Source of the DNA: a virus | Lineage: Duplodnaviria > Heunggongvirae > Uroviricota > Caudoviricetes | Length of the DNA stretch: 31,081 bases | IMG/VR virus record: IMGVR_UViG_2526164667_000037 | Direction: 5' to 3' (one strand) | Shown: positions 1-31,081 of the stretch, one piece after another | Position numbering within the stretch: position 1 is the stretch's first letter | Layout: each line of letters starts with the position of its first letter | Made by a program: the position numbers and the translations under genes | Notes under the pieces: generated by a model | Told to the model about the DNA's origin: nothing | The model's input: only the letters and a program-made list of their open reading frames with translations | Database searches by the model: none

Positions 1-981
1 TTATAACGTCACTCCGCCTTTTAGTGGATTCAGAGCGACGGCGTTCTGCAGGTAGTCAGGCGCAAGGTGCGCATAGGTCATTGTCTGCTGAATGCTCGCA
101 TGCCCCAGAATCTGTTGCAGTGCAATTATGTTGCCCCCATTCATCATGAAATGGCTTGCGAATGTATGCCGCAGAATGTGGGTTGCCTGATTGGGAGGTA
201 TATCAGGTTTCACTCTGCGTAAAATCCCGCAAAACTTCTCATAATCTACCTTGAACAATTTGGCGCTGGCCTCCTCTTTAACTTTTTTCTCCAGTTCCTC
301 AGAAATCGGCACTGTTCGCTTTTTACCGTTTTTGGTTTTCAGGAAGGTAACCCTGCAACTTGTAATCTGTGCTGGTTTTAGCGTGGCAACTTCCGTCCAT
401 CTTCCTCCAGTGCTCAGACATAAAAGCGCGACAAGTAAGTCATCACCAGTCAAAACATTTAGCAGTTTTTCGATTTCTGCTTTTTCCAGGAACGTCATTT
501 CAGGGTTAGCCTCCGTCAGTGGCGGCAGTCCGTGAATTGGGTGTTGCCCGGAAAATTCATCCAATTGAATTAATTTTGTGAACATGCCGGATAATCGGTA
601 CATGTCGCGGTTTATCGTTGCAGCACTGATGCCATCACGTAGTCGCATGGAGCGATAATCCATCAAAGCCCTTTTGTTCATCCGACTCACTGGTATATCA
701 CCTATGCCGCTGATGGTTTTGAGCAGATGATTAAACTCTTTTGTCCCATGCTCGTGGTTTTGCCCGTGGTATTTCCACCAGATGTCGAGCAATTCTGTCA
801 AAGTTCGGCGGTCTGCTCGCTGGCCTCCCCATTCTTTCTGACTGGCATTGACGATTGTGTATCGCTCAAATGCTACCGCTTCAGCTTTTCTTTCAAATTT
901 CCTGCGGATGCGTTTTCCATCGCGACCGCGAGGCCTGATATCCACTTCATAACGTCCATCATCGAGCTTTCTGATACTCAT
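1..981 (-). CDS. int: Tyrosine integrase (P2 Int-like), 326 aa
   Basis: Reverse ORF; homology-consistent start MSIRKLDDGRYEVDIRP (ATG at 981-979) rather than the 396-aa extension to 1191; C-terminal HILRHTFASH...YAHL tyrosine-recombinase motifs; position next to the C repressor. Confidence 0.9.
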   Translation of the reverse strand: MSIRKLDDGRYEVDIRPRGRDGKRIRRKFERKAEAVAFERYTIVNASQKEWGGQRADRRTLTELLDIWWKYHGQNHEHGTKEFNHLLKTISGIGDIPVSRMNKRALMDYRSMRLRDGISAATINRDMYRLSGMFTKLIQLDEFSGQHPIHGLPPLTEANPEMTFLEKAEIEKLLNVLTGDDLLVALLCLSTGGRWTEVATLKPAQITSCRVTFLKTKNGKKRTVPISEELEKKVKEEASAKLFKVDYEKFCGILRRVKPDIPPNQATHILRHTFASHFMMNGGNIIALQQILGHASIQQTMTYAHLAPDYLQNAVALNPLKGGVTL

Positions 982-4100: not shown

Positions 4101-6375
4101 AGCCTCCGGGCGTTTTGTCCCTCCTTCAGCATTTGCTGCAGGCACCGGTAAGGCGTTTACCGATGCTTATGCATGGAACGCGCCACGCGAGGCCGTCGGG
4201 CGCGAAAGACCCCTTACACGTGACGAGATGCGTCAGGTGCAAGGTGTTTTATCCACGATTAACCGCCTGCCTTACTTTTTGCGTTCGCTGTTTACTTCAC
4301 GCTATGACTACATCCGGCGCAATAAAAGCCCGGTGCACGGGTTTTATTTCCTCACATCCACTTTTCAGCGTCGTTTATGGCCGCGCATTGAGCGCGTGAA
4401 TCAGCGCCATGAAATGAACACCGACGCGTCGTTGCTGTTTCTGGCAGAGCGTGACCATTATGCGCGTCTGCCGGGGATGAATGATAAGGAGCTGAAAAAG
4501 TTTGCCGCCCGTATTTCATCGCAGCTTTTCATGATGTATGAGGAACTCTGCGATGCCTGGGTGGATGCGCATGGCGAAAAAGAATCGCTGTTTACGGATG
4601 AGGCGCAGGCTCACCTCTATGGTCATGTTGCTGGCGCTGCACGTGCTTTCAATATTTCCCCTCTCTACTGGAAAAAATACCGTAAAGGACAGATGACCAC
4701 GAGGCAGGCATATTCTGCCATTGCCCGTCTGTTTAACGATGAGTGGTGGATTAGTCAGCTTAAAGGCCAGCGTATGCGCTGGCATGAAGCGTTACTGATA
4801 GCTGTCGGGGAGGTCAATAAAGACCGTTCTCCTTATGCCAGTAAACACGCCATTCGTGATGTGCGTGCGCGCCGCCAGGCAAATCTGGAATTTCTTAAAT
4901 CGTGTGACCTTGAAAACAGGGAAACCGGCGAACGCATCGACCTTATCAGTAAGGTGATGGGCAGTATTTCTAATCCTGAAATTCGCCGGATGGAGCTGAT
5001 GAACACCATTGCCGGTATTGAGCGTTACGCCGCCGCAGAGGGTGATGTGGGGATGTTTATCACGCTGACCGCGCCGTCAAAGTATCACCCGACACGTCAG
5101 GTCGGAAAAGGCGAAAGAAAAACCGTCCAGCTTAATCACGGCTGGAATGATGAGGCATTTAATCCAAAGGATGCGCAGCGTTATCTCTGCCGTATCTGGA
5201 GCCTGATGCGCACGGCATTCAAGGATAATGATTTACAGGTCTACGGTTTGCGTGTCGTCGAGCCACACCACGACGGAACGCCGCACTGGCATATGATGCT
5301 TTTTTGTAATCCACGCCAGCGTAACCAGATTATCGAAATCATGCGTCGCTATGCGCTCAAAGAGGATGGTGACGAAAGAGGAGCCGCGCGAAACCGTTTT
5401 CAGGCAAAACACCTTAACCGGGGCGGTGCTGCGGGATATATCGCGAAATACATCTCAAAAAACATCGATGGCTATGCACTGGATGGTCAGCTCGATAACG
5501 ATACCGGCAGGCCGCTGAAAGACACAGCGGCGGCTGTTACCGCATGGGCGTCAACGTGGCGCATACCACAATTTAAAACGGTTGGCCTGCCGACAATGGG
5601 GGCTTACCGTGAACTACGCAAATTGCCTCGCGGCGTCAGCATTGCTGATGAGTTTGACGAGCGCGTCGAGGCTGCACGCGCCGCCGCAGACAGTGGTGAT
5701 TTTGCGTTGTATATCCGCGCGCAGGGTGGGGCAAATGTCCCGCGCGATTGTCAGACTGTCAGGGTCGCCCGTAGCCCGTCGGATGACGTTAACGAGTACG
5801 AGGAAGAGGTCGAGAGAGTGGTCGGCATTTACGCACCGCATCTCGGCGCGCGTCATATTCATATCACCAGAACGACGGAGTGGCGCATTGTGCCGAAAGT
5901 TCCGGTCGTTGAGCCTTTGACTTTAAAAAGCGGCATCGCCGCGCCTCGGAGTCCTGTCAATAACTGTGGAAAGCTCACTGGTGGTGATACTTCGTTACCG
6001 GCTCCCACACCTTCTGAGCACGCCGCAGCAGTGCTTAATCTGGTTGATGACGGTGTTATTGAATGGAATGAACCGGAGGTCGTGAGGGCGCTCAGGGGCG
6101 CATTAAAACACGACCTGCGAACGCCAAACCGTCAGCAAAGAAACGGAAGCCCGTTAAAACCACATGAAATTGCACCATCGGCCAGACTGACCCGGTCGGA
6201 AAGAATGCAAATTACCCGTATCCGCGTTGACCTTGCTCAGAACGGTATCAGGCCGCAGCGATGGGAGCTTGAGGCGCTGGCGCGTGGCGCGACCGTAAAT
6301 TATGACGGGAAAAAATTCACGTATCCGGTCGCTGATGAGTGGCCGGGATTCTCAACAGTAATGGAGTGGAAATGA
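4090..6375 (+). CDS. A: Replication initiation protein A (rolling-circle nicking endonuclease), 761 aa
   Basis: Start MAVKASGRFVPP at 4090 gives the P2 A length; contains PHWHMMLF (HUH-type motif) and Tyr-rich active-site region; sequence matches P2 A as I recall it. Confidence 0.95.
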   Translation: MAVKASGRFVPPSAFAAGTGKAFTDAYAWNAPREAVGRERPLTRDEMRQVQGVLSTINRLPYFLRSLFTSRYDYIRRNKSPVHGFYFLTSTFQRRLWPRIERVNQRHEMNTDASLLFLAERDHYARLPGMNDKELKKFAARISSQLFMMYEELCDAWVDAHGEKESLFTDEAQAHLYGHVAGAARAFNISPLYWKKYRKGQMTTRQAYSAIARLFNDEWWISQLKGQRMRWHEALLIAVGEVNKDRSPYASKHAIRDVRARRQANLEFLKSCDLENRETGERIDLISKVMGSISNPEIRRMELMNTIAGIERYAAAEGDVGMFITLTAPSKYHPTRQVGKGERKTVQLNHGWNDEAFNPKDAQRYLCRIWSLMRTAFKDNDLQVYGLRVVEPHHDGTPHWHMMLFCNPRQRNQIIEIMRRYALKEDGDERGAARNRFQAKHLNRGGAAGYIAKYISKNIDGYALDGQLDNDTGRPLKDTAAAVTAWASTWRIPQFKTVGLPTMGAYRELRKLPRGVSIADEFDERVEAARAAADSGDFALYIRAQGGANVPRDCQTVRVARSPSDDVNEYEEEVERVVGIYAPHLGARHIHITRTTEWRIVPKVPVVEPLTLKSGIAAPRSPVNNCGKLTGGDTSLPAPTPSEHAAAVLNLVDDGVIEWNEPEVVRALRGALKHDLRTPNRQQRNGSPLKPHEIAPSARLTRSERMQITRIRVDLAQNGIRPQRWELEALARGATVNYDGKKFTYPVADEWPGFSTVMEWK

Positions 6376-6827
6376 TGGCAAAAATTCACGAGGTAAAGCT
6401 GCACGCCAAATATTTTGACCTTGTGCTGGAAGGAAAGAAACGCGCAGAGTTTCGGAAAAATGACCGTAATTATGAGCGCGGGGACACGCTGATTTTGCAT
6501 GAATGGGTACAGGGTGTGTTTACGGGGCGAAAGGTTGAAGCCCGGATAACAGATGTTACTGACCTGTCAGACTGGCTGGAAGATTATGTCTTGCTAAGTA
6601 TTGAGCTGCTTAATACAGGCGCATATGAGATTGTGAACTGGAAAGAACTTAGTGAGCGTGGTCTGGTATTCAGAATTAATCATGAAATTATGCATCAGCT
6701 CGGTCTTGCTGTTATGTATGAGTCAGTGACAGGCCTGTCTGGCGGAGCAGTGGTTGCCACGGATGGAGCATGGAACTATTCAGATGAACAGATGGAGCGT
6801 GCACAGCAAAACGGGTGGCTTGGATAA
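6372..6827 (+). CDS. ASCH/DUF3850-like (PUA-fold) protein, about 151 aa, coupled to A
   Basis: ATG overlaps the A stop (ATGATG at 6372-6377); N-terminus KIHEVKLHAKYFDLVLEGKKRAEFRKNDRNYERGDTLILHEW looks like an ASCH-type domain (recognised by eye, not searched). Confidence 0.65.
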   Translation: MMAKIHEVKLHAKYFDLVLEGKKRAEFRKNDRNYERGDTLILHEWVQGVFTGRKVEARITDVTDLSDWLEDYVLLSIELLNTGAYEIVNWKELSERGLVFRINHEIMHQLGLAVMYESVTGLSGGAVVATDGAWNYSDEQMERAQQNGWLG

Positions 6828-7048
6828 TGCACAGAATACCAGGCGAGATACCGCACCATAAAACTAAAAATATCAAGCTGATGGCCATTGTTCACCGTCT
6901 ACAGCAGATTATGGTAAACGAAAATCTGACGCCTGATGAGCTGGTCGGGTGTGCGCAAATTGTTAGGGATAATTACGAGCGTTTGAACGATATGATTCAG
7001 CTTGGTACTTTCCAGCCAACAATACCTTTCTGGGGGCAACCTCGATAA
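6827..7048 (+). CDS. Hypothetical small protein (73 aa)
   Basis: ATG 6827 overlapping the previous stop (TAATG); no recognisable family. Confidence 0.45.
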   Translation: MHRIPGEIPHHKTKNIKLMAIVHRLQQIMVNENLTPDELVGCAQIVRDNYERLNDMIQLGTFQPTIPFWGQPR

Positions 7049-7053
7049 CCATA

Positions 7054-7096
7054 AAACCCTGCAGGTGCTGAAACTTGTTTTCAACACCTGCAGGGT
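7054..7096. repeat. Perfect 13-bp inverted repeat (AACCCTGCAGGTG ... CACCTGCAGGGTT) with 17-nt loop
   Basis: Read directly in the sequence; not followed by a T-run; sits at the boundary between the phage-GC region and the AT-rich cassette. Confidence 0.8.
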
Positions 7097-7170
7097 TGAG
7101 CAATGAGCGGCGCTAGGAGTTAGCAGCCTAGATTTCTGAATGTAACCCATTATAAAAATGATTTTGTGAT

Positions 7171-7200
7171 TTGAAGCTTGGAATTAAAATGAGTTAAAAT
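7171..7200 (+). promoter_or_regulatory. Candidate sigma70 promoter for the AT-rich cassette
   Basis: TTGAAG (7171-7176), 18-bp spacer, TAAAAT (7195-7200), within an AT-rich leader upstream of ATG 7267. Confidence 0.3.
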
Positions 7201-7266
7201 GAGTAGTGTTAACAGGCTGATAAACTAAACCAAGTAAGTTGTAAAAATAAATAGTGGAGTGTACAA

Positions 7267-7653
7267 ATGACACAGCAATATGTTAAAGACGTCATGATTG
7301 GTCAGAGGAAATTGCTTTCATCTAATACTTTCATAATTCCAAAAGGTGAAATGTGTGATTTTAAATTAAATATATCTGATGACGAGAATGAGTTTAACTT
7401 TCCTATTCGCATTGCCTTTGATGATGATGGCGGTTCAACTCAATCAGTTGAGTTCAAACCAGATCCATCCTCAAGCTCTATGAAAATGATCTTGCATAAC
7501 TGGAATAACCCTCTTGGCTCTGCGCTGAAAGAGTTTTACCCTATTGTTAATATCGAGAATAGAACAACAATTGAAATGCTTATGGTAAATAAAAGACTTG
7601 GCGATGTAAATGAACTGGTTATTCAATTCTGGCGAAAGGTCGAAATGTCATGA
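7267..7653 (+). CDS. Hypothetical protein, 128 aa, no recognised domain (first gene of AT-rich cassette)
   Basis: ORF with GGAG 7 nt upstream of ATG; low GC; stop overlaps the next start (ATGA at 7650-7653). Confidence 0.7.
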   Translation: MTQQYVKDVMIGQRKLLSSNTFIIPKGEMCDFKLNISDDENEFNFPIRIAFDDDGGSTQSVEFKPDPSSSSMKMILHNWNNPLGSALKEFYPIVNIENRTTIEMLMVNKRLGDVNELVIQFWRKVEMS

Positions 7654-8006
7654 ATAAGCCAAAAATAGAACTAGCTACAATTCCTGTCTCGCCTGATGAT
7701 ATATCCACTAACTTGCAGGTGGGTGTAATAGTTGTTAGTGAGGATAAGTTGATTCGCATCCTTGAAAAGGATCGGGAGAGGACTAAAAAGAATATGGCTT
7801 GGACAGCTCCTGCTAGTTTTTTTATCACATTGATTGTTGCAATATTAACAACTGATTTTAAAAGTCGGTGGGGTATGCCTGCGGAAGCATGGCAGGCGCT
7901 TTTTTATGTAGGGGCGGGATTATCTGCAATCTTTGCTGTTATTTATTGGTGTAAAGTAGACAGAAAAGACATGGATAAGTTGATTGAAGAGATAAAAGGT
8001 AAATAG
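7650..8006 (+). CDS. Small membrane protein, 118 aa, two predicted TM helices (second gene of cassette)
   Basis: Hydrophobic segments WTAPASFFITLIVAILTTDF and AWQALFYVGAGLSAIFAVIYW flanked by charged residues; translationally coupled to the upstream ORF. Confidence 0.7.
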   Translation: MNKPKIELATIPVSPDDISTNLQVGVIVVSEDKLIRILEKDRERTKKNMAWTAPASFFITLIVAILTTDFKSRWGMPAEAWQALFYVGAGLSAIFAVIYWCKVDRKDMDKLIEEIKGK

Positions 8007-20184: not shown

Positions 20185-21518
20185 CAGTGAAATACTACGC
20201 CATTCTGACTAATCAGGGCGCGGCACGGCTGGCTAACGCGACGATGCTCGGCAGTAAGCTGAATCTGACGCAAATGGCCGTTGGTGATGCGAATGGTGTC
20301 TTGCCGACACCAGACCCGGCACAGACAAAACTGATTAACCAGAAACGCATCGCGCCGCTGAATCTTCTGAGTGTTGACCCGAACAACCAGAGCCAGATTA
20401 TTGCGGAGCAAATCATCCCTGAGAACGAGGGCGGATTCTGGATCCGTGAGATTGGGCTTTATGATGATGAAGGCGTACTCATTGCGGTGGCGAACTGCCC
20501 GGAAACGTACAAACCGCAGTTGCAGGAAGGCAGCGGTCGTACCCAGACTATCCGCATGATTCTGGTTGTCACGAATACCGAAGCCATCACGCTGAAAATC
20601 GACCCGTCGGTGGTACTGGCGACCCGTAAATACGTGGATGATGAAGTCCTGGAATTAAAGCTGTATGTGGATGACCAGATGAGAAACCACATTGCCGCAC
20701 AGGATCCTCATACCCAGTATGCACAGAAACATAATCCGACATTTACCGGAGAACCAAAAGCGCCGACGCCTGCCGCAGGAAATAACACCACGCGGATTGC
20801 GACCACTGCGTTTGTACAGGCCGCTATTACCGCTCTGATTAACGGTGCGCCTGCCACGCTGGATACACTGAAAGAAATTGCCGCAGCCATTAACAATGAC
20901 CCGAAATTCAGCACCACCATTAACAATGCGCTGTCAGGTAAGCAGCCACTGGATGAGACGCTGACTCATTTGAGTGGGAAGGATGTTGCCGGTCTTCTCG
21001 CATACCTTGGTTTGGGAGAAGGCTCTGCATTACCTGTCGGTGTGCCTGTTCCGTGGCCTTCCGCCACTCCGCCGACAGGCTGGCTAAAATGCAATGGTGC
21101 GGCTTTTTCTGCTGAAGAATACCCGGAACTGGCAAAGGCTTACCCGACAAATAAATTGCCTGATTTACGCGGTGAATTTATTCGTGGCTGGGATGATGGG
21201 CGTAGTGCGGATGCGGGGAGAACAATATTATCCGCTCAGGGCGATGCCATACGTAATATCTATGGTGAGTTCAAGACTGTAAACACCGAAAATTATTCAA
21301 TATGGGAATCAGTAGGCTCGTTTAAGGGGGCAGTGGTGCCTTTGAACCCCTCAACGAACAATAGTTATTTCTCCTTAGTCAGAAGTATGGTGACAGAAAG
21401 GTCCGAGGGCGGTGTTTACCCAAAAGTGATTGGCCTTGATGCTTCAAGAATTGTTCCAACTGCAAACGAAAATCGACCCCGTAACATTGCCTTTAATTAT
21501 ATCGTGAGGGCTGCCTGA
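20181..21518 (+). CDS. H: Tail fibre protein (445 aa): P2 H-like N-terminal anchor, non-P2 C-terminal receptor-binding part with tail-collar-like motif
   Basis: N-terminal part is H-family-like; C-terminal part (VPWPSATPPTGWLKCNGAAFSAEEYPELAKAYP...LPDLRGEFIRGWDDGR) resembles the phage tail-collar domain; much shorter than P2 H; spans crossover site 20994-21019. Confidence 0.85.
   Translation: MTVKYYAILTNQGAARLANATMLGSKLNLTQMAVGDANGVLPTPDPAQTKLINQKRIAPLNLLSVDPNNQSQIIAEQIIPENEGGFWIREIGLYDDEGVLIAVANCPETYKPQLQEGSGRTQTIRMILVVTNTEAITLKIDPSVVLATRKYVDDEVLELKLYVDDQMRNHIAAQDPHTQYAQKHNPTFTGEPKAPTPAAGNNTTRIATTAFVQAAITALINGAPATLDTLKEIAAAINNDPKFSTTINNALSGKQPLDETLTHLSGKDVAGLLAYLGLGEGSALPVGVPVPWPSATPPTGWLKCNGAAFSAEEYPELAKAYPTNKLPDLRGEFIRGWDDGRSADAGRTILSAQGDAIRNIYGEFKTVNTENYSIWESVGSFKGAVVPLNPSTNNSYFSLVRSMVTERSEGGVYPKVIGLDASRIVPTANENRPRNIAFNYIVRAA
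20994..21019. repeat. Inversion crossover site, left (hix/gix/cix-like 26-bp site inside the tail-fibre gene)
   Basis: TTCTCGCATACCTTGGTTTGGGAGAA; 21 of 26 positions match the reverse complement of 22606-22631, with a perfect shared 14-bp block TTGGTTTGGGAGAA; encodes GLGE at the constant/variable junction. Confidence 0.75.
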
Positions 21519-22123
21519 TGGATAAAGCTATATTAAATAAGGAACTCATCGCCACAAAGGCGGGAGATATTACCGTTTATAATTATGATGGTGAAACACG
21601 AGAATATATTTTCACATCAACCGAATATCTTGCTGTGGGTGTCGGTATCCCGGCATGTTCCTGTTTAGATGCTCCTGGCTCATATAAAGCTGGTTATGCA
21701 ATTTGCCGTTCTGCAGATTTTAACTCATGGGAATATGTGCCAGACCATCGCGGTGAAATCGTCTATAGCACCGAAACAGGAGAATCAAAAGAAATCACAG
21801 CTCCGGGTGATTACCCTGAAAAGACAACCACTATCGCCCCGTTAACGCCATACGATAAATGGGATGGTGAGAAATGGGTGACGGATACCGAGGCACAGCA
21901 TAGAGCAGCAGTAGACATGGCAGAAACACAGCGGCAGTCGCTGATTGATGCTGCAATGGTTTCCATTAGTCTGATTCAACTGAAATTGCAGGCCGGGCGG
22001 AAGCTGACGCAGGCAGAAAACACCCGACTTAACGCCGTGCTGGATTACACTGACGCGGTGATGGCAACAGATACCAGCACCGCGCCAGATGTCATCTGGC
22101 CAGTTCCTCCTGAGACGGTTTAA
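21518..22123 (+). CDS. Tail fibre assembly chaperone (Tfa, functional analogue of P2 G), 201 aa
   Basis: Immediately downstream of the tail fibre gene; C-terminal region ending ...PDVIWPVPPE is typical of Tfa chaperones. Confidence 0.75.
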   Translation: MDKAILNKELIATKAGDITVYNYDGETREYIFTSTEYLAVGVGIPACSCLDAPGSYKAGYAICRSADFNSWEYVPDHRGEIVYSTETGESKEITAPGDYPEKTTTIAPLTPYDKWDGEKWVTDTEAQHRAAVDMAETQRQSLIDAAMVSISLIQLKLQAGRKLTQAENTRLNAVLDYTDAVMATDTSTAPDVIWPVPPETV

Positions 22124-22289
22124 TCTCAATCAGAATGGGTTCTCCCTTCTCGTTAACAGATATTTCCATTCCTTCAGGGATTTCAGATGCAGTAAAAAAC
22201 CAGTTATCTTCTGGTAATTCAACAGCCCCGGTCACGTCATGAAGACCGGGGATTACTTCAGTCAAAGTAACAGGATTAAACAGGCGCAC
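22092..22289 (-). CDS. Putative alternative small tail-fibre-assembly protein (Tfa') inside the invertible segment
   Basis: Reverse ORF; best start is GTG 22289 with GGAGG 7 nt upstream, just after the alternative fibre cassette stop (an ATG at 22379 gives a 95-aa version); its 3' end overlaps the forward Tfa by 32 bp; function inferred from position only. Confidence 0.3.
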   Translation of the reverse strand: MRLFNPVTLTEVIPGLHDVTGAVELPEDNWFFTASEIPEGMEISVNEKGEPILIEIKPSQEELAR

Positions 22290-22605
22290 AATAAACCCTC
22301 CAGGAAAAAGCACTTGTTGATGGTGTTCCGTCGTACATCTGGCAGCGGACATAAAAACCGGTATTAGTGACCTGGTCATCCACGATCATTGAAACGTGAA
22401 CGTTATTAGATGTGCCCCCATAATCCGTTCCTATTCTTTCCGCTATGCTGATAAAACGTGAAAGCTTAGGTAGCGCAATTGGATAAACGACTTTAGCCAG
22501 TCCATTATCATTAGAACCCCCCGTTCCAAAGACTTCTATTGCACCATCTGACCAGCGTATCCACGCACCATTGGCATTAGCTCCTCGCTGAATGACATAT
22601 CTGGC
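22276..22605 (-). CDS. Promoterless alternative tail-fibre C-terminal cassette (S'v-like), silent in this orientation
   Basis: Reverse frame runs through the right crossover site encoding the same GLGE junction as the tail fibre gene, then about 108 aa of different sequence (ARYVIQRGANANGAWIRWSDGAIEVFGTGG...); inversion would fuse it to H residues 1-279. Confidence 0.6.
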   Translation of the reverse strand, partial: ARYVIQRGANANGAWIRWSDGAIEVFGTGGSNDNGLAKVVYPIALPKLSRFISIAERIGTDYGGTSNNVHVSMIVDDQVTNTGFYVRCQMYDGTPSTSAFSWRVYCAPV

Positions 22606-22631
22606 TTCTCCCAAACCAACGTTTAAGAAAA
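22606..22631. repeat. Inversion crossover site, right (hix/gix/cix-like)
   Basis: TTCTCCCAAACCAACGTTTAAGAAAA, inverted relative to 20994-21019; about 55 bp upstream of the invertase gene. Confidence 0.75.
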
Positions 22632-22686
22632 TGCAGAGATTATGGCTAACTGGCATCATCTCCGGTTTTTATTCAGGGGGATGCTC

Positions 22687-23280
22687 ATGCTTATTGGCTA
22701 TGTACGCGTGTCAACAAATGACCAGAACACGGAATTGCAGCGTAATGCGCTGGAGTGCGCAGGATGCGAGCGGATTTTTGAGGATAAAATCAGCGGCACG
22801 AAGTCCGACCGACCGGGACTGAAAAAACTGCTCAGAACATTATCAGCAGGTGACACTCTGGTGGTCTGGAAGCTGGACAGGCTGGGGCGTAGTATGCGGC
22901 ATCTGGTCATTCTGGTTGAGGAACTGCGCGAACGCGGCGTTAATTTTCGCAGCCTGACGGATGCTATTGATACCAGCACGCCGATGGGGCGTTTTTTCTT
23001 TCATGTGATGGGTGCCCTGGCTGAAATGGAGCGAGAACTCATTGTCGAGCGGACACGCGCCGGACTGGAAGCGGCCAGAGCCAAAGGTCGTATTGGTGGC
23101 AGACGACCGAAACTCACTGCGGGTGAGTGGGAGCAGGTCGGACGGTTGCTGGCTGCGGGGGAATCTCGTCAACGTGTGGCGCTGATTTTTGATATTGGTC
23201 TGTCCACGCTCTATAAAAAATTCCCCTCATCAGCGACAAAGAATAAATTGTGTCATCCCTTAGCCAACCGGGACAAATAG
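22687..23280 (+). CDS. Serine DNA invertase (Gin/Pin/Cin/Hin family), about 197 aa
   Basis: Start MLIGYVRVSTNDQNTELQRNALECAGCERIFEDK...; catalytic-Ser N-terminal domain and C-terminal HTH (GLSTLYKK) closely resemble Mu Gin as I recall it; the upstream ORF extension from 22642 is rejected. Confidence 0.9.
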   Translation: MLIGYVRVSTNDQNTELQRNALECAGCERIFEDKISGTKSDRPGLKKLLRTLSAGDTLVVWKLDRLGRSMRHLVILVEELRERGVNFRSLTDAIDTSTPMGRFFFHVMGALAEMERELIVERTRAGLEAARAKGRIGGRRPKLTAGEWEQVGRLLAAGESRQRVALIFDIGLSTLYKKFPSSATKNKLCHPLANRDK

Positions 23281-29723: not shown

Positions 29724-29942
29724 ATGTTTCATTGTCCTTTATGCCAGCATGCCGCACATGCGCGTACAAGCCGCTATATCACTGACACGACAAAAGAGCG
29801 TTATCACCAGTGTCAGAACGTGAATTGCAGCGCCACGTTCATCACTTATGAGTCGGTACAGCGATACATCGTGAAGCCGGGAGAAGTCCACGCCGTAAGG
29901 CCGCATCCGTTGCCGTCAGGGCAGCAAATTATGTGGATGTGA
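29724..29942 (+). CDS. ogr: Late gene transcription activator Ogr (zinc finger), 72 aa
   Basis: MFHCPLCQHAAHARTSRYITDTTKERYHQCQNVNCSATF... with four-Cys zinc finger; matches P2 Ogr as I recall it; the upstream ORF extension from 29661 is rejected. Confidence 0.95.
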   Translation: MFHCPLCQHAAHARTSRYITDTTKERYHQCQNVNCSATFITYESVQRYIVKPGEVHAVRPHPLPSGQQIMWM

Positions 29943-29946
29943 TCAC

Positions 29947-29978
29947 AAAAATAGCCCCTCACTTGAGGGGCTATTTTT
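29947..29978. terminator. Rho-independent terminator after ogr (bidirectional-looking)
   Basis: Perfect 14-bp stem AAAAATAGCCCCTC / GAGGGGCTATTTTT with 4-nt loop; A-run on one side and T-run on the other. Confidence 0.8.
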
Positions 29979-30070
29979 ATGGTCGATGTGGACGCTATGT
30001 GGACAGCGGTTGACATAAATCCATTTATATCATCAGGTTAGGTGCTTTTTTGTGACACCATCCCTGTCTT

Positions 30071-30097
30071 CCCCCACATGATGTGGGGGTTTTTTTT
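30071..30097 (+). terminator. Strong rho-independent terminator upstream of fieF
   Basis: CCCCCACA (30071-30078), loop TGA, TGTGGGGG (30082-30089), followed by eight T (30090-30097). Confidence 0.8.
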
Positions 30098-30178
30098 ATC
30101 CTCAATTTGCCTGCTGCTTAATGCATTGCAGATGATTTGCTTCCGTTATACTAGCGTCAGTTGATAGCGGGAGTATTT

Positions 30179-31081
30179 ATGAATCAATCTTATGGACGGC
30201 TGGTCAGTCGGGCGGCGATTGCTGCGACGGCGATGGCTTCGTTGCTATTGCTGATTAAAATTTTTGCATGGTGGTATACCGGGTCGGTGAGTATTCTCGC
30301 CGCGCTGGTGGATTCGCTGGTGGATATCGGCGCGTCGTTGACGAATTTACTGGTGGTGCGATATTCCCTGCAACCTGCCGACGATAATCACTCGTTTGGT
30401 CACGGTAAAGCAGAGTCCCTCGCGGCGCTGGCGCAAAGTATGTTTATCTCCGGTTCGGCACTATTCCTGTTTTTGACGGGTATTCAACATCTGATATCTC
30501 CAACACCGATGACAGATCCAGGCGTCGGGGTTATCGTGACAATTGTGGCGCTAATTTGTACGATTATCCTTGTCTCGTTTCAGCGTTGGGTGGTGCGCCG
30601 GACGCAAAGCCAGGCGGTGCGGGCTGATATGCTACATTACCAGTCTGATGTTATGATGAACGGCGCAATTCTGCTGGCGCTGGGGTTGTCCTGGTACGGC
30701 TGGCATCGCGCCGATGCTCTGTTTGCATTGGGAATCGGCATCTATATTTTATATAGCGCGTTACGCATGGGATATGAGGCGGTACAGTCATTACTGGATC
30801 GCGCATTGCCTGATGAGGAACGGCAAGAAATTATTGATATCGTGACTTCCTGGCCGGGTGTTAGCGGCGCTCACGATCTTCGCACGCGGCAGTCAGGGCC
30901 GACCCGCTTTATTCAGATTCATTTGGAAATGGAAGACTCTCTGCCTTTGGTTCAGGCACATATGGTGGCGGATCAGGTAGAGCAGGCTATTTTACGGCGT
31001 TTTCCGGGATCGGATGTAATTATCCATCAGGACCCCTGTTCCGTCGTACCCAGGGAGGGTAAACGGTCTATGCTTTCATAA
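30179..31081 (+). CDS. fieF: Cation-diffusion-facilitator family ferrous-iron/zinc efflux transporter (300 aa), host gene
   Basis: Start [35 protein letters not shown] at 30179 with GGGAG RBS; sequence matches E. coli FieF (YiiP) as I recall it; full length, stop at 31079-31081. Confidence 0.9.

Follow-up and report, generated by a model that had tools for sequence, protein, structure and literature searches.

A probable attR junction of a Wphi-type P2-like prophage upstream of fieF, with an attachment core that contains the CpxQ terminator

RESULTS AND DISCUSSION

Layout and gene content of the prophage

The stretch of DNA analyzed here (31,081 nucleotides, referred to as the window) begins with the stop codon of the phage gene int at base 1 and ends with that of the host gene fieF at base 31081 (Table 1). 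Over the C-terminal 233 residues available, the window Int is 97.9% identical to Int of Wphi, 97.4% identical to that of L-413C, and 100% identical to that of P37. Because window base 1 belongs to the int stop codon, attL is expected just to the left of the window. At the opposite end, the last phage gene is ogr, named ogrK in the RefSeq genomes that match the window, and the sequence from 30101 to 31081 is identical or nearly identical to the fieF leader and coding sequence of empty sites.

Table 1. Features of the window that bear on the ogr-fieF junction
Feature	Coordinates	Strand	Evidence or remark
int, Wphi-type tyrosine integrase gene	1..981	-	Pfam Int_N 5.5e-28, Phage_integrase 2.8e-19
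ogr, late-gene activator, last phage gene, 72 aa	29724..29942	+	Pfam Ogr_Delta 1.1e-21
ogr intrinsic terminator hairpin (A5-stem ... stem-T5), predicted	29947..29978	+	RNA fold; also in Wphi and L-413C attP regions
P arm of attP, phage DNA, 75 bp	29979..30053	.	Near-identical to attP left arm of Wphi (L007), L-413C (L006), and P37 (L008)
Two direct ATGTGGAC repeats, 11 bp apart, proposed arm-type Int sites	29986..29993, 29997..30004	+	Motif count
IHF-consensus-like site TATCATCAGGTTA, 1 mismatch	30028..30040	+	Weak, positional hint only
att core, 47 bp, GACACCATCCCTGTCTTCCCCCACATGATGTGGGGGTTTTTTTTATC	30054..30100	.	Host identity starts at 30054; one exact copy in window
cpxP/CpxQ intrinsic terminator, predicted, here severed from cpxP	30071..30097	+	Terminator scan, fold; directly 3' of cpxP in K-12, BL21, and EDL933
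Loop SNP marker, third loop base	30081	+	A in window, every attP examined, and most hosts; C in K-12-type hosts
Host fieF upstream region (B' side), same as empty sites	30101..30178	+	Alignment with K-12, BL21, and EDL933
fieF, CDF cation-efflux transporter CDS	30179..31081	+	ORF list, RefSeq annotation of matching genomes

The window prophage differs from its sequenced relatives in its cargo and tail-fiber segments. The cargo between replication gene A and the portal gene (6339 to 8006) is unlike that of the relative in strain BEN2908, and it consists of an ASCH/DUF3850+DUF7415 protein (6339 to 6827), a DUF6864 protein (7267 to 7653), and a small ORF (7650 to 8006); a PADLOC scan of the cargo ORFs in this interval returned zero defense matches. 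Similarity to the BEN2908 prophage (locus L005) is also absent or weak across the tail-fiber and fiber-assembly segment (20641 to 23124), of which only 21467 to 22101 aligns, at 88.7%, the rest of the two prophages being 95 to 99.7% identical. The divergence of this segment from BEN2908 is that of the usual mosaic host-range module.

Position of the junction and the P arm

When positions 29900 to 30300 were used as a megablast query against 5,426 complete E. coli genomes, most genomes matched only query positions 155 to 401, that is, the window from 30054 rightwards, and the interval from 30054 to 30300 was present in 5,426 of 5,426. In the empty site of K-12, the gene order is cpxA-cpxR / cpxP / fieF / pfkA and the sequence reads ...CCCAGTAG TAA ACCCTG TTTTCCTTGCCATA GACACCATCCCTGTCTTCCCCCACATGCTGTGGGGGTTTTTTTTATC CTCAATTTGCC..., with the cpxP stop, the CpxQ region, and fieF contiguous there as well as in BL21 and EDL933. 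A first-pass annotation of this DNA had placed attR directly upstream of fieF, had tentatively named cpxP as the neighbor of fieF in the unoccupied site, and had proposed a comparison with prophage-free strains as a check. That comparison bears out all of this, since prophage-free strains match the window from 30054 rightwards only, cpxP is the neighbor, and the second hairpin of Table 1 is found in these strains.

The P arm is absent from empty cpxP-fieF sites. The 31-kb window holds three copies of ATGTGGAC, and two of them lie in this 75-bp arm; we propose these two repeats as putative Int arm-type sites, and they fit the P2-type consensus tgTGGaCa (PMC3448106). A match to the IHF consensus also occurs in the arm. 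It was set aside as a supported IHF site because such matches are no more frequent in the window than chance would give (23 versus 21.8 expected).

The attachment core and its limits

Several genomes hold prophages that match the first 2.5 kb of the window at 100% identity, including the genome of the avian pathogenic (APEC) strain BEN2908, in which attL and attR within the region from cpxA to pfkA share the 47-bp direct repeat listed in Table 1. The same core is duplicated at attL and attR in AR435 and E-ge-1. It is identical at 47 of 47 positions to the attP of three free phages (Wphi, AJ245959; L-413C, NC_004745; P37, NC_070907) and to the attB of BL21 and EDL933, and at 46 of 47 positions to the attB of K-12, the one difference being the loop SNP at 30081. 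In the three phage attP sequences, the P arm lies to the left of the core, and the right flank, the P' arm, is the one that follows the core at attL; free or episomal phages hold the core between ogr and int. An alignment of eight sequences (five attB, the window attR, the BEN2908 attL, and the Wphi attP) was invariant over 47 columns save for one loop position, with divergence on the expected sides.

The core had been described as undefinable because attL falls outside the window. The window's own attL does lie beyond its edge, but the core limits could be set from relatives whose int region is 99.7 to 100% identical, together with attP and attB. The 47-bp repeat of attL and attR shows that the core contains the whole host terminator, in line with the suggestion that the two overlap or adjoin. 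The phage does not end with ogr and its terminator, as had been stated, but in the core, 75 to 100 bp to the right of that terminator.

The integrase type, the P arm with its arm repeats, the identity of the core, and the host flank on the fieF side are all those of a Wphi-type attR. From these sequence features, we put a probability of roughly 0.9 on the region being the attR junction of a Wphi-type P2-like (Peduovirus) prophage that was integrated by its tyrosine integrase at the conserved cpxP-fieF attB.

Two predicted terminators between ogr and fieF

The hairpin that follows ogr has a 14-bp stem and a 4-nt loop, with a folding energy of -23.6 kcal/mol and a z score of -8.2 relative to dinucleotide shuffles, of which 0 of 200 were equally stable. 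The second hairpin (30071 to 30089) has an 8-bp stem with six G-C pairs and a 3-nt loop, and it is followed by T8 at 30090 to 30097; its fold inside the 47-nt core has an energy of -16.5 kcal/mol and a z score of -2.65. The hairpins are spaced 93 nt apart, and 81 nt separate the T tract from the fieF ATG at 30179. Terminator-like patterns in the region are at chance level (3 found versus 2.8 expected), so the case for the hairpins rests on the fold z scores and on conservation. Both 29947-29978 and 30071-30097 fold as intrinsic (Rho-independent) terminators require, and both are predicted to be active. The scan and the folds agree in every item with the end of ogr, the two hairpins, and the spacing to fieF as first annotated.

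The second terminator had been provisionally assigned to the upstream host gene, and it is indeed the terminator of the cpxP 3' untranslated region (UTR) in prophage-free genomes. A consensus sigma-70 scan of 29943 to 30178 found no promoter-like site, and it thus lends no support to a promoter for the CpxQ fragment described below or to a consensus fieF promoter in this interval.

A severed 3' fragment of CpxQ at attR

CpxQ is an Hfq-dependent RNA of about 60 nt that is processed by RNase E from the cpxP 3' UTR and makes up almost the whole of it (PMC9438474, PMC4817254), and the tentative naming of cpxP as its source was correct. Its 5' seed is used for nhaB and cfa (PMC6755755). Positions 30054 to 30097 of the window are identical to the 3' ~44 nt of CpxQ, terminator included, and the core as a whole corresponds to CpxQ from about nt 15 to its end, plus ATC. 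Identity begins at GACACC (30054), and the preceding 14 nt are replaced by phage sequence; the window copy therefore has neither the CpxQ 5' seed (UUUUCCUUGCCAUA...) nor the RNase E processing site. The 5' end of CpxQ was reportedly given by Chao and Vogel in 2016 as UUUUCC.... The copy also does not follow the cpxP stop but stands behind ogr and the P arm, with cpxP some 30 kb away, past attL. What it retains is the Rho-independent terminator hairpin and U tract of CpxQ, that is, the Hfq-binding 3' module (30071 to 30097). Read from its sequence, the attR copy would be a severed, promoter-less, and seed-less CpxQ 3' fragment and not a CpxQ gene.

At the left end of the core, a small inverted repeat, GACA-N7-TGTC (30054 to 30068), coincides with the first stem-loop of CpxQ, which the fold shows as a small stem. 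We regard this element (GACA-CCATCCC-TGTC) as a candidate location of the overlap region and of the Int core sites that flank strand exchange.

Rfam models, run on the junction and on the intact K-12 site, gave no match at a family's gathering score, and none of them identifies CpxQ. The best match was RF02628 (Hrs1, the Erwinia "Hfq-regulated sRNA 1"), on the minus strand opposite CpxQ, with 41.4 bits at the intact K-12 site (locus L001, 1472 to 1544, minus strand) and 31.8 bits at attR (30031 to 30097, minus strand), relative to a gathering score of 56.4. The consensus of the Hrs1 model corresponds to CpxQ read in reverse complement, and the family may correspond to the other strand of the CpxQ locus.

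Side of strand exchange and origin of the terminator hairpin

The third loop base of the second hairpin varies naturally, which makes it possible to tell on which side strand exchange took place. Position 30081 is A in BL21, EDL933, and other empty sites and C in K-12 (locus L001, position 1529), and by exact partial matching the C-type empty site occurs in ~895 genomes. In three lysogens with C-allele hosts (AR435, E-ge-1, and ESBL_DR28), the base is A at attL but C at attR; all three have the same integrase allele and could go back to no more than one or two integration events. An attL with C, sought with the P' arm variants AATTAC and AATCAC, had no exact full-length match in the 5,426 genomes (best, 96 of 97), where the query was exact for these two variants and C combined with another arm variant would fall among the one-mismatch matches. 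The combination of attL=A with attR=C in C-allele hosts, and the lack of any attL=C match for the two arm variants, place the crossover left of 30081. The loop, the 3' half of the stem, and the T tract at attR are therefore original host DNA, and the corresponding part of CpxQ at attL is phage DNA. Within the core, the exchange would most likely fall in GACA-CCATCCC-TGTC, in the left part.

The same marker bears on whether the hairpin at attR could itself be phage DNA, either because the exchange took place to its right or because the hairpin is found only in the phage, with the host terminator staying with cpxP. In favor of this, an identical hairpin occurs in the phage attP, and in A-allele hosts such as that of the window, sequence alone cannot tell one origin from the other. 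The hairpin is nonetheless present in all prophage-free genomes, and in C-allele hosts it is the host C that appears in the attR loop and the phage A in the attL loop, with no attL=C found for the two arm variants queried, which makes a phage origin of the attR hairpin extremely improbable. The favored reading is thus one in which the terminator in front of fieF is the one that stood there before integration. We also considered the A allele of the loop as a scar of past lysogeny and rejected it, since A is found in 24 of 24 species-representative loci across genera and since an excision that crosses over left of the SNP would bring the host allele back.

Proposed integration and its consequences for CpxQ and fieF

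The attP, located between ogr and int, consists of the P arm with its two putative ATGTGGAC arm sites, the 47-bp core, and the P' arm, and the core exactly duplicates the 3' three-quarters of CpxQ, with the first small stem-loop, the terminator hairpin, and the U tract. At attL, the 5' ~14 nt of CpxQ from the host, including the seed, would be joined to the 3' part from the phage, so that CpxQ and the cpxP terminator are rebuilt. At attR, the P arm meets the host's own terminator and the leader of fieF, which leaves the orphan CpxQ 3' fragment. The ogr terminator would end phage late transcription, and the orphan host terminator would form a second barrier insulating fieF from the phage, as it presumably did from cpxP before integration. 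An identity block that begins at the crossover and reaches the 3' end of the RNA gene would in this way rebuild the gene, as in phages that target RNA genes.

The rebuilt sequence at attL leaves CpxQ unchanged in A-type hosts such as that of the window and changes the loop from UGC to UGA in C-type hosts, and fieF at attR keeps its full 78-bp leader and its upstream terminator. Since CpxQ is rebuilt and both elements upstream of fieF are kept, the sequence argues for an insertion that is probably neutral by design rather than expression altering. The first-pass suggestion that insertion could alter expression of the gene whose terminator it overlaps is accordingly disfavored for CpxQ, which the exact 3' copy in the phage would restore.

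A material effect on host expression, acting on the level or termination of CpxQ through the new P' arm downstream or on fieF through lost read-through from cpxP or gained read-through from ogr, has some points in its favor, in that the downstream context at attL changes right after ...TTTTTTTTATC, the CpxQ loop is altered in C-allele hosts, and there is a precedent in PhiW104, whose integration at ryeB changes the levels of RyeA and RyeB (reviewed in PMC7380047). We nevertheless judge such an effect unlikely, because the full CpxQ sequence, including the hairpin and U8, is rebuilt at attL, fieF retains its terminator and complete 78-bp upstream region behind two terminators that separate it from ogr, and the consensus scan of this interval found no promoter. 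An active role for the orphan fragment itself would be more speculative still. The fragment, at attR and in attP, could be transcribed within the ogr 3' UTR and act as a truncated small RNA or as an Hfq decoy in phage development, and it does keep an Hfq-type terminator module and an internal stem-loop, co-oriented with ogr and 93 nt downstream. Against this, a very stable ogr terminator precedes it with no promoter-like site in between, the 5' seed for nhaB and cfa is missing (PMC6755755), and the need for a rebuilt gene at attL fully accounts for the identity of the fragment to CpxQ; we consider expression of this kind highly improbable. Similarly long odds attach to a broader proposal, in which Wphi-type lysogeny rewrites the 3' three-quarters of CpxQ with phage DNA, a replacement that shows in K-12-type hosts as C to A in the terminator loop, and leaves an orphan 3' module behind ogr. 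That proposal draws on the position of an exact 45-nt stretch of the core behind cpxP in at least 10 enterobacterial genera and on its use as a target by at least two integrase lineages (68% identical). If it were true, copies borne by phages could be one reason why the CpxQ 3' end is so unusually conserved, and read-through from ogr into the orphan or attP copy could yield a decoy that binds Hfq and, while the phage develops, modulates the Cpx envelope-stress regulon.

A neutral insertion, which we prefer, would have little biological consequence, being a textbook integration into the 3' end of a noncoding RNA with a replacement copy. CpxQ in lysogens at cpxP-fieF would be a chimera of host and phage DNA. 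The promoter-less CpxQ 3' duplicate upstream of fieF may confuse small RNA annotation, read mapping, and primer design.

Relation to known attachment sites

The cpxP-fieF attachment site is already published, and its overlap with CpxQ is a simple corollary of two published facts. Wphi and L-413C integrate at position 4104392 of MG1655 with identical cores (Nilsson and colleagues, PMC3448106), cpxP-fieF is listed as the Wphi1 site in E. coli W (PMC3032704), and P2-like prophages have been described at cpxP/fieF (yiiP) in O157:H7 and in S. Pullorum (PMC7609406, PMC6449608). In our literature search, which was incomplete in coverage, no paper equated the att core with CpxQ. The closest systems are the attP-attB pairs of Wphi and of the Yersinia phage L-413C, which share the P arm, the 47-bp core, and the site with the window prophage and have Int proteins ~98% identical to its own; nothing essential differs.

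The attB of phage P2 (locH), at the cyaR small RNA locus beside the K-12 ogr-D' remnant, is also associated with a small RNA (PMC3032704, PMC3448106). P2 resembles the window prophage in its P2-type integrase, its tgTGGaCa arm sites, and the position of ogr next to attR, but the core sequence and the integrase specificity differ. The P2 core is shorter, at 27 bp. A similar use of the 3' end of a noncoding RNA is seen in PhiW104, which in Salmonella DT104 integrates in the final 23 bp of ryeB (SdsR) and rebuilds the gene, and the same rebuilding at one junction is known for the phages 186, Fels-2, and SopEPhi, which target tRNA or tmRNA genes (PMC7380047, PMC3448106). Unlike the target of PhiW104, the RNA at the window site is derived from a 3' UTR by processing of an mRNA and has no antisense partner gene to disrupt, so that an expression effect like that of PhiW104 is not expected.

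Occupancy of the site and host range

The cpxP-fieF site is uninterrupted in 4,591 of the 5,426 complete E. coli genomes (85%), an attL with a Wphi-type P' arm is present in 820 (15%), and an ogr-attR-fieF junction like that of the window is present in 623. The exact coordinates of attR, the core, and the P arm are thus usable for annotating the prophage in ~15% of complete E. coli genomes. In other lysogens at the site, an additional gene or an IS element separates ogr from attR. Some of these prophages carry a gene for a 213-aa hypothetical protein (WP_000416606.1) between ogr and the P arm (L003, 2347 to 2988; L009, 41899 to 42540), and AR435 has IS150 in the same interval, which appears to be a second cargo slot adjoining attR.

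Among species representatives, the exact 45-mer with the A allele is found 3' of cpxP in Escherichia, Salmonella, Citrobacter, Enterobacter, Kosakonia, Yokenella, Kluyvera, Pluralibacter, Erwinia, and Edwardsiella. In ~9 of 24 species-representative loci (L015 to L038), the 45-mer runs directly into a P2-type P' arm (AAT-ACTTA...) on its right, which indicates that these loci, in Yokenella, Citrobacter, Enterobacter, Kluyvera, Erwinia, and others, are lysogens. In two Kosakonia loci, phage-like sequence flanks the 45-mer on both sides. The 45-mer also occurs in 62 IMG/VR contigs.

One further carrier is the 32,330-bp circular "plasmid unnamed3" of E. coli 2020N21-246-1 (NZ_JBQJRQ010000002.1, locus L002), which is an episomal P2-like phage. 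Its Int is 68% identical to the window Int and its arm repeats differ (of the GTGTAGTC / ATGTAGAC type), and its attP has 45 of the same 47 core bases, so that a second integrase lineage targets the CpxQ terminator.

Many RefSeq E. coli chromosome records start inside the prophage (e.g., NZ_CP172134.1, NZ_CP067250.1, and NZ_CP062865.1), with attL ~3.7 to 4.1 kb before the end of the record and attR ~28 to 30 kb after its start. By arithmetic, base 1 of NZ_CP172134.1 is the first base of P2 gene A, which encodes the replication endonuclease (window position ~4091). Such record starts look like an artefact of automated start fixing in circular assemblies.
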